A DNA stretch of 64,000 bases from Escherichia coli (GCF_001677475.2 NZ_CP015229.1), one strand, 5' to 3'. Counted from the stretch's first letter, positions 33,529 to 39,316 are shown. The notes: generated by a model not told the origin, from the sequence alone. Numbers and translations: made by a program.

Positions 33529-33969
33529 GATACCCTTCTAACGATATCTACCTTCACCCCGTAAAAGATGGGTTTGGCAGCACACTTACCCTATATCTAC
33601 TCATTTTTACTGCAACAGGTTGAAATCTTAGCACTGTCAGAAAGCGCTGATGACTAAACAACCCTGGGCCGGGCGATGTAACCATCACACAGAATCCTGA
33701 TAGCGAAATATGGCGTGACTCGATACTTCACTCCGCAATGTATTCCTTGATGAATTCGCAGGCCCGTGATACACGGGACAGGTCGCTGAATGACGACAAT
33801 GTCCTGGAAATCAGCGAACCGCGTATCCGAAGTACATTTGAGCGACTGTACCAGAACATGAATGAGGCGTTTGGATTAGGTGATTATTAGCAGGGCTAAG
33901 CATTTTAGTATTATTATTTTCCGGTTGAGGGATATGGAGATATCGACAACAACCGGAAAAAGTTTACGT

Positions 33970-35217
33970 CTATATTGCTGAAGGAACAGGCGTTTCCATA
34001 ACTATTTGCTCGCGTTTTTTACTCAGGAAGAAAATGCCAAATAGCAACATCAGGCAGACAATACCCGAAATTGCGAAGAAAACTGTCTGGTAGCCTGCGT
34101 GGTCAAAGAGTATCCCAGTCGGCGTTGAAAGCAGCACAATCCCAAGCGAACTGGCAATTTGAAAACCAATCAGAAAGATCGTCGACGACAGGCGCCTATC
34201 AAAGTTTGCCACGCTGTATTTGAAGACGGATATGACACAAAGTGGAACCTCAATGGCATGTAACAGCTTCACTAATGAAATAATCCAGGGGTTAACGAAC
34301 AGCGCGCAGGAAAGGATACGCAACGCCATAATCACAACACCGATAAGTAATGCATTTTTTGGCCCTACCCGATTCACAAAGAAAGGAATAATCGCCATGC
34401 ACAGCGCTTCGAGTACCACCTGGAATGAGTTGAGATAACCATACAGGCGCGTTCCTACATCGTGTGATTCGAATAAACCTGCATAAAAGACAGGAAAAAG
34501 TTGTTGATCAAAAATGTTATAGAAAGACCACGTCCCCACAATAAATATGACGAAAACCCAGAAGTTTCGATCCTTGAAAACTGCGATAAAATCCTCTTTT
34601 TTTACCCCTCCCGCATCCGCCGCTACGCACTGGTGATCCTTATCTTTAAAACACATGTTGATCATCATAAATACAGCGCCAAATAGCGAGACCAACCAGA
34701 AGTTGATATGGGGACTGATACTAAAAAATATGCCGGCAAAGAACGCGCCAATAGCATAGCCAAAAGATCCCCAGGCGCGCGCTGTTCCATATTCGAAATG
34801 AAAATTTCGCGCCATTTTTTCGGTGAAGCTGTCAAGCAAACCGCATCCCGCCAGATACCCCAGGCCAAAAAAGAGCGCCCCCAGAATTAGACCTACAGAA
34901 AAATTGCTTTGCAGTAACGGTTCATAAACGTAAATCATAAACGGTCCGGTCAAGACCAGGATGAAACTCATACACCAGATGAGCGGTTTCTTCAGACCGA
35001 GTTTATCCTGAACGATGCCGTAGAACATCATAAATAGAATGCTGGTAAACTGGTTGACCGAATAAAGTGTACCTAATTCCGTCCCTGTCAACCCTAGATG
35101 TCCTTTCAGCCAAATAGCGTATAACGACCACCACAGCGACCAGGAAATAAAAAAGAGAAATGAGTAACTGGATGCAAAACGATAGTACGCATTTCTGAAT
35201 GGAATATTCAGTGCCAT
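33970..35217 (-). CDS. cscB: sucrose:H+ symporter (LacY-family oligosaccharide/H+ symporter)
   Basis: 415-aa 12-TM ORF MALNIPFRNAYYRFASSYSFLFFISWSLWWSLYAIWLKGHLG... Confidence 0.92.
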   Translation of the reverse strand: MALNIPFRNAYYRFASSYSFLFFISWSLWWSLYAIWLKGHLGLTGTELGTLYSVNQFTSILFMMFYGIVQDKLGLKKPLIWCMSFILVLTGPFMIYVYEPLLQSNFSVGLILGALFFGLGYLAGCGLLDSFTEKMARNFHFEYGTARAWGSFGYAIGAFFAGIFFSISPHINFWLVSLFGAVFMMINMCFKDKDHQCVAADAGGVKKEDFIAVFKDRNFWVFVIFIVGTWSFYNIFDQQLFPVFYAGLFESHDVGTRLYGYLNSFQVVLEALCMAIIPFFVNRVGPKNALLIGVVIMALRILSCALFVNPWIISLVKLLHAIEVPLCVISVFKYSVANFDRRLSSTIFLIGFQIASSLGIVLLSTPTGILFDHAGYQTVFFAISGIVCLMLLFGIFFLSKKREQIVMETPVPSAI

Positions 35218-35288
35218 AATTACCTGCCTGTCGTTAAAAAATTCACGTCCTATTTAGAGATAAGAGCGACTTCGCTGTTTACTTCTCA

Positions 35289-36203
35289 CTATTCCAGTTC
35301 TTGTCGACATGGCAGCGCTGTCATTGCCCCTTTCGCCGTTACTGCAAGCGCTCCGCAACGTTGAGCGAGATCGATAATTCGTCGCATTTCTCTCTCATCT
35401 GTAGATAATCCCGTAGAGGACAGACCTGTGAGTAACCCGGCAACGAACGCATCTCCCGCCCCCGTGCTATCGACACAATTCACAGACATTCCAGCAAAAT
35501 GGTGAACTTGTCCTCGATAACAGACCACCACCCCTTCTGCACCTTTAGTCACCAACAGCATGGCGATCTCATACTCTTTTGCCAGGGCGCATATATCCCG
35601 ATCGTTCTGTGTTTTTCCACTGATAAGTCGCCATTCTTCTTCCGAGAGCTTGACGACATCCGCCAGTTGCAGCGCCTGCCGCAAACACAAGCGGAGCAAA
35701 TGCTCGTCTTGCCATAGATCTTCACGAATATTGGGATCGAAGCTGACAAAACCTCCGGCATGCCGGATCGCCGTCATCGCTGTAAATGCGCTGGTACGCG
35801 AAGGCTCAGCAGACAACGCAATTGAACAGAGATGTAACCATTCGCCATGTCGCCAGCAGGGCAAGTCTGTCGTCTCTAAAAAAAGATCGGCACTGGGGCG
35901 GACCATAAACGTAAATGAACGTTCCCCTTGATCGTTCAGATCGACAAGCACCGTGGATGTCCGGTGCCATTCATCTTGCTTCAGATACGTGATATCGACT
36001 CCCTCAGTTAGCAGCGTTCTTTGCATTAACGCACCAAAAGGATCATCCCCCACCCGACCTATAAACCCACTTATTCCGCCTAATCTGGCGATTCCCACCG
36101 CAACGTTAGCTGGCGCACCGCCAGGACAAGGCAGTAGCCGCCCGTCTGATTCTGGCAAGAGATCTACGACCGCGTCCCCTAAAACCCACACTTTGGCTGA
36201 CAT
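35289..36203 (-). CDS. cscK: fructokinase (PfkB/ribokinase family)
   Basis: 304-aa ORF MSAKVWVLGDAVVDLLPESDG... with C-terminal DSTGAGDAF anion-hole motif. Confidence 0.92.
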   Translation of the reverse strand: MSAKVWVLGDAVVDLLPESDGRLLPCPGGAPANVAVGIARLGGISGFIGRVGDDPFGALMQRTLLTEGVDITYLKQDEWHRTSTVLVDLNDQGERSFTFMVRPSADLFLETTDLPCWRHGEWLHLCSIALSAEPSRTSAFTAMTAIRHAGGFVSFDPNIREDLWQDEHLLRLCLRQALQLADVVKLSEEEWRLISGKTQNDRDICALAKEYEIAMLLVTKGAEGVVVCYRGQVHHFAGMSVNCVDSTGAGDAFVAGLLTGLSSTGLSTDEREMRRIIDLAQRCGALAVTAKGAMTALPCRQELE

Positions 36204-36308
36204 TTTTTTCCCTTAGATTCATCTGACTTACGCATAGTGATAAACCTCTTTTTCGCAAAATCGTCATGGATTTACTAAAACATGCATATTCGATCACAAA
36301 ACATCATA

Positions 36309-37852: not shown

Positions 37853-37859
37853 CATAATA

Positions 37860-38855
37860 TCAGGTGGAACAACGGATCAACAGCGGGCAAGGGATCCGCG
37901 TCACTCTTCCCCCTTCACGACCTTCAATAATATGCAATGCAGCTTCCCGCCCGATAATGTCATGTGGAAGCTGAATTGTGGTCAGCGGCGGTAAAAACAG
38001 ATGCCCGACGCCAACCAGATTATCAAAGCCCATTACGGCGACATCCTGCGGGATACGTACCCCCTTCGCCAGGAGAACCTGATAAGCGACAAAGGCTGCG
38101 CGATCGTTACCACATATCAGAACATCAAAATCTGGTTTGCCAGATTGGAAGTGGGCATTGAGTAAACTTGCGAGATCGGTGTAGTGATCATCACCTGTTG
38201 CCATGTGAAATTGTTTCACCTCAGCCAGATCTCGTCCAGCATCACGCCAGGCCTGCTCAAATCCCTGCCGACGATACCCTGTTGCCAACGCACTTTCCGG
38301 TAGCCAGAAGCATAACGGTTGACGATAGCCCGCCGCGAGCAAATGCTGTGTTGATTCATATTGTGCAGTGTAATCATCAGGGATATAACTGGGTAACACT
38401 GGGTCATCCGCCACACAGTTCGCCAATACAATATTTTCACCATACAGAGACTCAGGCAGCGTGATATGTCGCAGCCCCATTGTAGTATAGATAATGCCAT
38501 CCGGACGGTGGGCAAGCAGCTGACGTGCCGCGCGGGCAGCGTCATCTTCAGAAAAAATATTGATTAAAAAACTATTCCAGCCGAACTCGCTGGCGGTTTG
38601 CTCAATGGCAAGCAGAATATCAACAGAGAAAGGAGTGGTAGCAGTGTCCTGCGCCAGCACGGCGAGAGTCGACGGCTTACGTCCTTGAGCGCGCATCTTA
38701 CGGGCGGAAAGATCAGGAACATAATTCAGGGTCTGGATTGCCTGCAATACGCGGTCACGCGTTGCAGGACGCACAGATTCTGCATTATGCATCACCCGGG
38801 AGACTGTCATCATCGACACTCCCGCCAGGCGTGCGACATCCTTTAATGAAGCCAT
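37860..38855 (-). CDS. cscR: LacI-family sucrose operon repressor
   Basis: Track ORF is 397 aa; start placed at MASLKDVARLAGVSMMTVSRVMHN (HTH), giving 331 aa with a periplasmic-binding-protein-like core. Confidence 0.9.
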   Translation of the reverse strand: MASLKDVARLAGVSMMTVSRVMHNAESVRPATRDRVLQAIQTLNYVPDLSARKMRAQGRKPSTLAVLAQDTATTPFSVDILLAIEQTASEFGWNSFLINIFSEDDAARAARQLLAHRPDGIIYTTMGLRHITLPESLYGENIVLANCVADDPVLPSYIPDDYTAQYESTQHLLAAGYRQPLCFWLPESALATGYRRQGFEQAWRDAGRDLAEVKQFHMATGDDHYTDLASLLNAHFQSGKPDFDVLICGNDRAAFVAYQVLLAKGVRIPQDVAVMGFDNLVGVGHLFLPPLTTIQLPHDIIGREAALHIIEGREGGRVTRIPCPLLIRCST

Positions 38856-39097
38856 ACCCATGCCGTTTGCCGTAAAACGGGCACTGTAGCAGAAACAGAC
38901 GTCACTGGCGAGATCCAACGATATTCTTAACGCCCTATCACCCGACACGGCAATACAATAAAAAATAACAATAATTGCCGGATAATTGTACCCAATTCCG
39001 CCCCTGTTCTCGCCAACGAGTAACCATATAGGCAAGTAAGTAAAACATGCCAACTGACATCGCCAACCTGGATAAGAAAATATAAATATGGATCATT

Positions 39098-39316
39098 GTG
39101 CTGCCGCTGTATCCCGACATCAGCCCGGAAATTATTGCGATTGCTATCGGTTCAGGTGCGATTGGCTGCACGATCGTTACGGACTCGCTTTTCTGGCTGG
39201 TGAAGCAATATTGCGGCGCTACGCTTAATGAAACATTTAAACACTATACGACAGCGACATTTATCGCTTCAGTCGTCGCTCTGGCGGGCACATTCCTGCT
39301 GTCATTTATCATCTAA
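39098..39316 (+). pseudogene. dsdX: 3'-terminal remnant of the D-serine permease gene (GntP family)
   Basis: 72-codon frame ...[71 protein letters not shown] immediately upstream of dsdA; only the last ~2 TM helices of a ~445-aa permease are present. Confidence 0.7.

Follow-up and report, generated by a model that had tools for sequence, protein, structure and literature searches.

A csc (sucrose) regulon between argW and a truncated dsdX in an Escherichia coli genome of an outlying lineage

In the 64,000-nucleotide stretch of Escherichia coli DNA analysed here (hereafter the window), the region following argW very probably carries a chromosomal non-PTS csc regulon in its usual position, as a 5.57-kb block bounded by the argW 3' end and by codon 374 of dsdX (Table 1). 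This replacement of dsdCX by csc is already known and well described (PMC4366372, PMC7486766, PMC11251922), and the state of the locus places the source strain in the csc-type half of E. coli and nothing beyond. What the present analysis adds concerns the history of the locus, namely the remnant of an island gene within it, the presence of its joints in a lineage that is ∼10% diverged and lasting selection on dsdA.

Table 1. Features of the argW-csc-dsd locus, numbered from the first nucleotide of the window
Feature	Position	Strand	Length	Description
argW, tRNA-Arg(CCU)	33454-33528	+		ARAGORN; Rfam tRNA 63.4 bits; left boundary
Spacer argW-cscB	33529-33969	+	441 bp	truncated DUF4942 gene inside
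Candidate cscKB terminator stem-loop	33917-33961	-		directly 3' of cscB stop codon
cscB	33970-35217	-	415 aa	sucrose:H+ symporter, oligosaccharide MFS family
cscK	35289-36203	-	304 aa	fructokinase
Divergent cscKB/cscA control region	36204-36418	none
cscA	36419-37852	+	477 aa	cytoplasmic sucrose hydrolase (invertase, GH32)
cscR	37860-38855	-	331 aa	LacI-family repressor of csc genes
Region upstream of cscR, up to right joint	38856-39098	none
dsdX stub ORF	39098-39316	+	72 codons	GTG start
dsdX remnant	39099-39316	+		K-12 dsdX nt 1121-1338
dsdA	39334-40662	+	442 aa	D-serine ammonia-lyase

Alignment with K-12 MG1655 (BLAST) mapped both joints to the base. Homology to K-12 ends with the last base of argW (33528/33529) and is back at 39099 (joint 39098/39099), which corresponds to dsdX nt 1121, the second base of codon 374. 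The intervening csc block (33529-39098) comprises 5,570 bp, and its counterpart in K-12 is 2.37 kb of DNA made up of the argW-dsdC intergenic region, dsdC and dsdX nt 1-1120. As had been proposed in the original prediction, cscB-cscK (minus), cscA (plus) and cscR (minus) come directly after argW, with their open reading frames (ORFs) where they had been placed; cscB and cscK share one strand, cscA is divergent from them and cscR is convergent with cscA. The identical layout, annotated as cscB, cscK, cscA and cscR, is found in the RefSeq genome of UC4224. Gene coordinates were derived from mechanical ORFs, profile matches and the RefSeq annotation of near-identical loci; the mechanical ORF of cscA begins at 36410, and that of cscR reaches a TTG at 39053. 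The tRNA was the sole RNA family detected by an Rfam scan of 33000-41000. A promoter scan yielded fewer sigma-70-like matches than expected by chance and was left unused as evidence.

Profile searches assigned CscB to TIGR00882 (592.9 bits versus a cut-off of 220), CscK to the NF006957 fructokinases (505.7 bits versus a cut-off of 450) and CscA to TIGR01322 (479.7 bits versus a cut-off of 356.4). CscA retains the GH32 catalytic motifs WMNDPNG (residue 36), RDP (residue 160) and ECPD (residue 215), and CscR matches LacI-family profiles; its UC4224 counterpart, which has the same position, carries the RefSeq annotation "sucrose operon repressor CscR". Going by the literature and by these family assignments, CscB would import sucrose with a proton, CscA would split it into glucose and fructose within the cytoplasm, and CscK would phosphorylate the fructose. 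Because the wild-type regulon allows only slow growth on sucrose (PMC11251922), the source strain need not be sucrose-positive.

A repeat search of the cscK-cscA intergenic region revealed two exact 12-bp palindromes, GTTAACGTTAAC, at 36309-36320 and 36373-36384, and a pattern search found 2 matches to this sequence in the window versus 0.14 expected. These palindromes are predicted CscR operators. Between them, at 36324-36339, lies a CRP-like site with 1 mismatch, TGTGATATTCATCGCA, a pattern that is weak when taken alone (4 matches versus 2.18 expected). According to the summary of Jahreis (2002) in PMC11251922, the csc control region contains a Crp site and a pair of 12-bp inverted repeats, and the CRP-like site and the two palindromes of the window match this description. 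Both operators are located ∼47 and ∼111 bp upstream of cscA in the Escherichia genomes L008 and L009, in Citrobacter amalonaticus, where they have the same sequence and nearly the same distance from cscA as in the window, and in Tatumella; in Pluralibacter, both are slightly farther upstream. Binding of CscR to the two identical palindromes would be expected to repress the divergent cscKB and cscA promoters, and the CRP site between them may place the csc genes under catabolite control. At the other end of cscB, RNA folding identified a stem-loop (-17.3 kcal/mol, z = -3.4) whose stability was reached in 0 of 200 shuffled sequences. It falls inside a stretch of ∼70 bp (33902-33969) that is conserved with C. 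amalonaticus, is kept in the comparison genomes L008, L009 and L010, and is a candidate terminator for cscKB.

On the other side of the block, the D-serine genes are incomplete. The original prediction that dsdC is absent, that dsdX is reduced to its last ∼72 codons and that dsdA is intact agreed with tblastn, profile and BLAST results. A tblastn search of the 64-kb window with K-12 DsdC and DsdX found only DsdX residues 374-445, the same portion (positions 374-445 of 445) that the stub matches in the NF007395 DsdX profile, and the remnant is annotated in RefSeq as a pseudogene lacking its N-terminus. The interval contains neither a full-length dsdC or dsdX (tblastn) nor a disrupted csc gene, and a functional dsdCXA locus, in the sense of dsdC and full-length dsdX together with dsdA, was not found in the window. 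Because K-12 homology restarts at 39099, genuine dsdX sequence in the stub amounts to 218 nt, starting with the second and third bases of codon 374 and running through codons 375-445 to the stop; the G at 39098, with which the 72-codon ORF begins, comes from the csc side of the joint. Compared with the dsdCXA locus of K-12 and UPEC, the window has dsdA and the 3'-terminal 218 nt of dsdX as orthologous, collinear sequence and lacks dsdC, the control region between dsdC and dsdX, and dsdX nt 1-1120. Over the dsdX'-downstream flank, identity to K-12 is 97.3 to 97.8%. DsdA itself matches TIGR02035 (807.2 bits) and shows three window-specific substitutions (T208M, T243R and S325N). By analogy with EHEC, dsdA is expected to be poorly expressed without DsdC, so that the strain would lack D-serine utilisation and be D-serine sensitive. 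A second copy of dsdCXA is present in some K1 strains.

The csc regulon has reportedly been described in E. coli EC3132, W and O157:H7 EDL933 by Bockmann (1992), Jahreis (2002) and Moritz & Welch (2006). Measured against the published descriptions of these strains rather than against single alignments, the window shows no structural difference, having the four genes in identical order and orientation and a short ORF between argW and cscB; in all of them csc lies between argW and a truncated dsdX, with dsdC lost (PMC11251922, PMC7486766, PMC3032704). The assignment to the architecture of EC3132, W and O157:H7, already made from the sequence, agrees with the literature (PMC7486766, PMC4366372, PMC3032704, PMC11251922). 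In place of single alignments to W, EDL933 and CFT073, we searched the 5,426 complete RefSeq E. coli genomes. The 6.2-kb csc architecture was present in 2,645 of these, as a single collinear piece in the best 30 matches listed, and the K-12-type 5' segment of dsdC-dsdX in 2,698. These counts are consistent with two alternative states of one locus, as had been suggested, and with about half of the complete genomes carrying it, the csc arrangement is real but ordinary. The choice between csc and dsdCX serves as a marker of E. coli ecology and has been linked to the niche restriction of LEE-positive pathogens (PMC4366372, PMC7486766), with the csc-type state predicting slow use of sucrose and sensitivity to D-serine. 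Today, the two states are most likely swapped by homologous recombination in the conserved flanks, since the dsdA gene of the csc-type genome UC4224 differs from that of K-12 by just 3 nt.

Recombination of this kind could also have brought csc into the source lineage. Judging by identity values, this lineage is an outlier: the best identity among the 5,426 complete genomes is 98.4% for core DNA at one end of the window and 97.8% at the other, so that this DNA is at least 1.6 to 2.2% away from all of them. The csc copy of the window is 98.8 to 99.0% identical to the closest E. coli copies in RefSeq and differs by at least 1% from every complete genome, and the best match of the segment 33300-39500 to any of these genomes is 99.0%. 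This value, higher than those of the core ends, would fit a recent import of the csc block from mainstream E. coli by homologous recombination, as opposed to vertical inheritance along with its flanks, as would a synonymous divergence from comparison genome L001 of 0.004 to 0.038 in csc versus 0.08 to 0.12 in mlaA and yfdC, although the underlying counts are small. However, divergence in the non-coding parts of the block is on a par with that of the flanks (97.7% identity in the spacer, 96.3% upstream of cscR), dsdA and emrY adjoining the block show intermediate divergence, and the ∼10% diverged Escherichia genome L009 is ∼90% identical both in csc and in the dsdA-emrY flank, an equality that vertical descent predicts. 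On balance, we regard a recent import as possible but somewhat improbable.

Given that Shigella csc loci are mostly broken by IS elements (PMC11251922) and that the source lineage is unusual, the csc genes might instead be decaying pseudogenes in a locus that is dead for sucrose and D-serine alike. This is very unlikely, since the four csc ORFs are full length, no internal stop was found in cscB, cscK, cscA, cscR or dsdA, and no IS was found in the region. The Csc proteins carry just four window-specific substitutions, CscB K341R and CscR A153V among them, and every one is conservative. Values of dN/dS are far below 1 in cscB (0.03 to 0.23), cscK (0 to 0.10) and cscA (0.06 to 0.27), which argues for purifying selection on the csc genes (summarised as 0.03 to 0.27) with the exception of cscR within E. 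coli, where the dN/dS of 0.32 to 0.98 is unreliable because it derives from only 1 to 3 synonymous differences. With complete ORFs, these ratios, the GH32 motifs kept in CscA and both operators exact, the csc genes look functional.

The interval had further been described as lacking integrase, transposase and phage genes. This held, but the spacer between argW and cscB contains a truncated DUF4942 gene. Homology to DUF4942 extends over ∼33696-33890, with an annotated 50-aa ORF at 33738-33890 that we take to be, probably, ORF z3622 of EDL933. The Pfam match (E = 3.3e-9) covers model positions 5-62 of 190, and in near-identical loci RefSeq annotates the ORF as "DUF4942 domain-containing protein" without its C-terminus. 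A protein search for full-length DUF4942 relatives found only short remnants of 44 to 131 aa, almost all assigned to E. coli in those records that give a source. Found in 2,644 of the 5,426 complete genomes, a count that matches the 2,645 of the csc architecture, the spacer appears to be a constant companion of csc. Its first 160 bp had no Pfam or NCBIfam match, its PHROGs match was marginal, and no similarity to K-12 YeeW or the end of CP4-44 was seen. A different position of the left joint, with the start of the spacer corresponding to the K-12 DNA that follows attR, was considered and rejected, as alignments of the spacer to K-12 DNA downstream of argW/attR scored no better than shuffled sequence.

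The DUF4942 family occurs in the distal module of P4-integrase-type islands such as the SRL island (PMC6980539), and the fragment in the spacer recalls this module. As in the CP4-44 and SRL PAI islands and in the CPS-53 prophage, the left boundary lies at the 3' end of a tRNA gene; unlike P4-integrase-type islands, the locus has no integrase, att repeats or further island genes. An integrase ORF adjoining argW, where K-12 has intS and comparison genome L007 an integrase fragment, was not found in 33529-39098, and no copy of the last 10 to 29 nt of argW with up to 1 mismatch, as expected of an attR-like repeat, was found in 33529-39400. That the block might be a genomic island or prophage at argW, still active or newly integrated, with csc as cargo is most improbable and largely refuted for the present day. 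It is true that argW is a known integration site, occupied by CPS-53 in K-12, by P22-like prophages that in other strains separate argW from the spacer and by an integrase fragment and ISEc46 in the same place in L007, and that the spacer holds the DUF4942 remnant. The block, however, lacks excisionase and IS sequences as well as integrase and transposase genes, the 3' end of argW is not directly repeated (at least 10 nt, at most 1 mismatch) in 33529-39400, and the block shows identical joints in 2,645 genomes at ∼1% internal diversity and is hence old and immobile. Full-length matches labelled as plasmids were records of 0.37 to 4.9 Mb, the largest being chromosome-sized, and not genuine plasmids. 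Matches labelled as phages were argW prophages recorded with flanking chromosome, and csc on phages was rejected as a candidate.

For this old block we infer an origin in one event, as thousands of E. coli genomes and the ∼10% diverged Escherichia genome have both joints in common. An element integrated at argW was probably involved, because the boundary lies exactly at the 3' end of the tRNA gene and an island-gene remnant follows it; the integrase, attR, dsdC and the 5' part of dsdX would have been lost later by deletion. The evidence for an island origin consists of one 58-residue Pfam match and the position of the boundary. The csc locus of C. amalonaticus contains homologous cscBKAR genes that are 80 to 83% identical to the window over 33902-38896, which leaves 38897-39098 as bases not in common by the BLAST limits. 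It is flanked on one side by fbp and a chemoreceptor gene and on the other by yjfF-ytfTRQ, with no adjoining argW, DUF4942 remnant or dsd genes, in contrast to the window.

Both joints of the window recur in L009, in which the spacer comes straight after attR and the flank on the cscR side stops at the same base; the right joint was aligned in five genomes. In six comparison genomes (five of the csc type and K-12), dsdA is intact, with dN/dS of 0.06 to 0.19, and the ratio stays at ∼0.06 to 0.07 across a dS of ∼0.33. Such strong purifying selection in csc-type genomes suggests that dsdA is more than dead weight. A bolder reading, which we offer tentatively and consider rather unlikely, is that the arrangement predates the species E. 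coli, because the ∼10% diverged Escherichia genome has the same joints, and that dsdA was kept without DsdC and DsdX for a selected, DsdC-independent role of DsdA. If true, DsdA in csc-type strains would not be a silent leftover.

The csc block had also been singled out as the only clearly accessory block in the window, which did not hold, as the yfc fimbrial operon and the yfdF region differ from K-12 too. The yfc operon is just 75 to 80% identical to K-12, and in ∼1.7 kb of adjoining DNA (15881-16948 and 22601-23235) no K-12 match reached 150 bp. The yfdF/icaT region is low in GC and polymorphic.

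Comparison with E. coli K-12 MG1655, where argW is followed by the CPS-53 prophage, the attR remnant pawZ, dsdC, dsdX and dsdA, allowed us to map both joints of the sucrose-utilization (csc) cluster to the base. Both BLAST and direct comparison showed that homology to K-12 ends at 33528, the final base of argW, and restarts at 39099, corresponding to dsdX nucleotide 1121. Between these joints lies an inserted block of 5,570 bp (33529-39098), in place of 2,368 bp of K-12 DNA that comprise the 95-bp argW-side intergenic sequence, dsdC, the dsdC-dsdX control region and the first 1,120 nt of dsdX. 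The remaining dsdX stub contains 218 nt of genuine dsdX sequence, with the G of its GTG start contributed by the csc side. The original prediction of an intact csc cluster at the argW-dsd hotspot, with dsdC absent, dsdX cut to a stub and dsdA intact, was borne out by tblastn and ORF analysis. Neither dsdC nor dsdX beyond the stub was found by tblastn across the 64 kb, and there were no internal stops in cscB, cscK, cscA, cscR or dsdA. The finding is real, and both its location and its interpretation are correct.

Genes of the argW-csc-dsdA locus
Feature	Position	Strand	Length	Assignment
argW	33454-33528			tRNA-Arg (CCU), also found by Rfam; sole tRNA gene in the window
cscB	33970-35217	-	415 aa	oligosaccharide MFS transporter, TIGR00882, 592.9 bits
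cscK	35289-36203	-	304 aa	fructokinase, NF006957, 505.7 bits
cscA	36419-37852	+	477 aa	GH32 sucrose hydrolase, TIGR01322, 479.7 bits
cscR	37860-38855	-	331 aa	LacI family
dsdX stub	39098-39316	+	72 codons	DsdX profile positions 374-445 only
dsdA	39334-40662	+	442 aa	D-serine ammonia-lyase, TIGR02035, 807.2 bits

The predicted likeness to sucrose-positive E. coli was equally evident, since replacement of dsdC and part of dsdX by cscBKAR beside the argW hotspot has been published for EDL933, W and EC3132 (PMC7486766, PMC4366372, PMC3032704, PMC11251922). The csc/dsd polymorphism is textbook knowledge, already treated in several papers, and its description here is useful annotation rather than discovery. 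Among 5,426 complete E. coli genomes, the 6.2-kb stretch 33300-39500 was present at ≥80% coverage in 2,645 (top identity, 99.0%), and in the 30 best matches of these a single collinear piece spanned it in full. RefSeq annotates the matching loci as tRNA-Arg, a DUF4942 fragment, cscB, cscK, cscA, cscR, a dsdX pseudogene lacking its N terminus, and dsdA. The K-12 dsdC-dsdX 5' segment reached ≥80% coverage in 2,698 genomes of the same collection. These counts, each made separately, sum to 98.5% of the collection, which fits csc-type and dsdCX-type being alternative states of one locus and is compatible with the predicted alternation of sucrose and D-serine catabolism. In the csc-type genome UC4224, dsdA differs from that of K-12 by just 3 nt, consistent with homologous recombination in the flanks converting one state into the other.

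Given the intact ORFs, the low pairwise dN/dS of cscB, cscK and cscA (0.03 to 0.27) and the presence of only four substitutions private to the window's Csc proteins, all conservative, the csc genes are most likely functional. CscA carries the WMNDPNG, RDP and ECPD motifs. For cscR, dN/dS was 0.06 to 0.15 against more distant genomes; the values within E. coli (0.32 to 0.98) are unreliable because they rest on only 1 to 3 synonymous differences. Between cscK and cscA, the 12-bp palindrome GTTAACGTTAAC occurs twice without mismatch (36309-36320 and 36373-36384); there is no other copy in the window, where chance alone would give 0.14, and a CRP-like site lies between the two (36324-36339). This agrees with the csc operators and Crp site credited to Jahreis 2002 (PMC11251922). 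Both palindromes recur in two other Escherichia genomes, Citrobacter amalonaticus and Tatumella, at ∼47 and ∼111 bp upstream of cscA; those of Pluralibacter lie slightly farther upstream. A stable stem-loop (33917-33961; z = -3.4) is located 3' of cscB. Sucrose growth with wild-type csc has been described as merely slow (PMC11251922).

Despite the absence of DsdC and DsdX, dsdA was under purifying selection in every csc-type genome examined (dN/dS, 0.06 to 0.19) and intact in K-12 and all five csc-type comparison genomes (L001, L002, L006, L007 and L009). Three substitutions, T208M, T243R and S325N, are private to the window's DsdA. In EHEC, dsdA is intact yet silent and is reactivated by deletions that remove cscR (PMC7486766).

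The interval was, as predicted, free of integrase, transposase and phage genes, but the spacer that separates argW from cscB (441 bp) contains an island-gene remnant. This is the N-terminal third of a DUF4942 domain (Pfam E = 3.3e-9, model positions 5-62 of 190), annotated as truncated in RefSeq; no full-length parent was found. The spacer occurs in 2,644 genomes, matching the csc count. DUF4942 genes are found in the distal module of the SRL island (P4-integrase type), after the yeeU/yeeV toxin-antitoxin genes (PMC6980539). Together with the left boundary lying exactly at the tRNA end, this island family suggests that csc may have come on, or next to, an element integrated at argW and since decayed. 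No repeats of the argW 3' end were detected within or adjoining the block, and the spacer start is not homologous to K-12 sequence downstream of attR. In C. amalonaticus, whose csc locus is sited elsewhere, between fbp and yjfF-ytfTRQ, homology to the window is limited to 33902-38896, so that 373 bp on the argW side of the block and 202 bp on its dsdX side are specific to the Escherichia arrangement. In ETEC isolate L7_E1373 (L007, 5957-7960), most of the argW-cscB spacer has given way to an integrase fragment and ISEc46, an IS200/IS605 element with TnpB. Four "phage genome" deposits, including L089 (ON470594.1), have the spacer together with csc genes at one terminus; in ON470594.1, the sole such record inspected, these adjoin an excisionase of a P22-like argW prophage. 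Either the prophage boundaries were set wrongly in these records, or csc was packaged through aberrant excision.

Two GTDB species-representative Escherichia genomes carry related loci. In L009 (record title, E. coli SCPM-O-B-8794), csc and the dsdA-emrY flank each match the window at ∼90% identity. At the L009 locus (1-5810), a CPS-53-type attR runs straight into the spacer, and the cscR-side flank stops at the same base as in the window. Both joints are therefore either older than the split between L009 and the window's lineage or were transferred along with the flanks. The L009 dsdX stub has undergone a secondary deletion of ∼105 bp at a TGC microhomology. A CPS-53-like prophage end lies upstream in L009, and the spacer there has internal deletions. 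In L008 (Escherichia sp. MOD1-EC7003; ∼95% identical), csc is fused directly to the lpxP upstream region (L008, 5081-6524; window, 55410), and ∼16 kb from dsdA through yfdY, including emrKY, evgAS and the oxalate genes, is missing.

Core DNA at the two window ends (1-8000 and 56000-64000) reached best identities of only 98.4% and 97.8% among the 5,426 genomes, and window core DNA is 95 to 97.8% identical to K-12. By this measure the source is an outlier lineage within E. coli sensu lato, and it may represent a cryptic clade or another sparsely sampled branch of Escherichia. Mainstream E. coli is closer to the window in the csc coding genes than in the flanks, a hint of import by recombination; the block's non-coding parts show no such closeness. 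Against its best E. coli copy, cscR has a single synonymous change (dS, 0.004), whereas the adjacent 243-bp non-coding stretch has 9 differing positions (96.3% identity). This contrast (37860-39098) recurs between other E. coli genomes and could mark a breakpoint of recombination or a non-coding stretch that evolves unusually fast.

The csc block, proposed as the only clearly accessory one, is not the only variable block in the window, since the yfc fimbrial operon and a yfdF/icaT-like gene vary too. The yfc chaperone-usher operon (16098-22565) is a strongly divergent allele with 75 to 80% identity to K-12, and its usher ORF (19290-21938; 882 aa), unlike the pseudogene yfcU of K-12, is intact. 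Across ∼1.7 kb flanking the operon (15881-16948 and 22601-23235), no K-12 match of ≥150 bp was found. The polymorphic yfdF/icaT-like ORF (29926-31218), in DNA of 32 to 39% GC, encodes 430 aa, compared to 352 aa for K-12 YfdF, and the neighboring intergenic DNA is only 87 to 95% identical among E. coli genomes.
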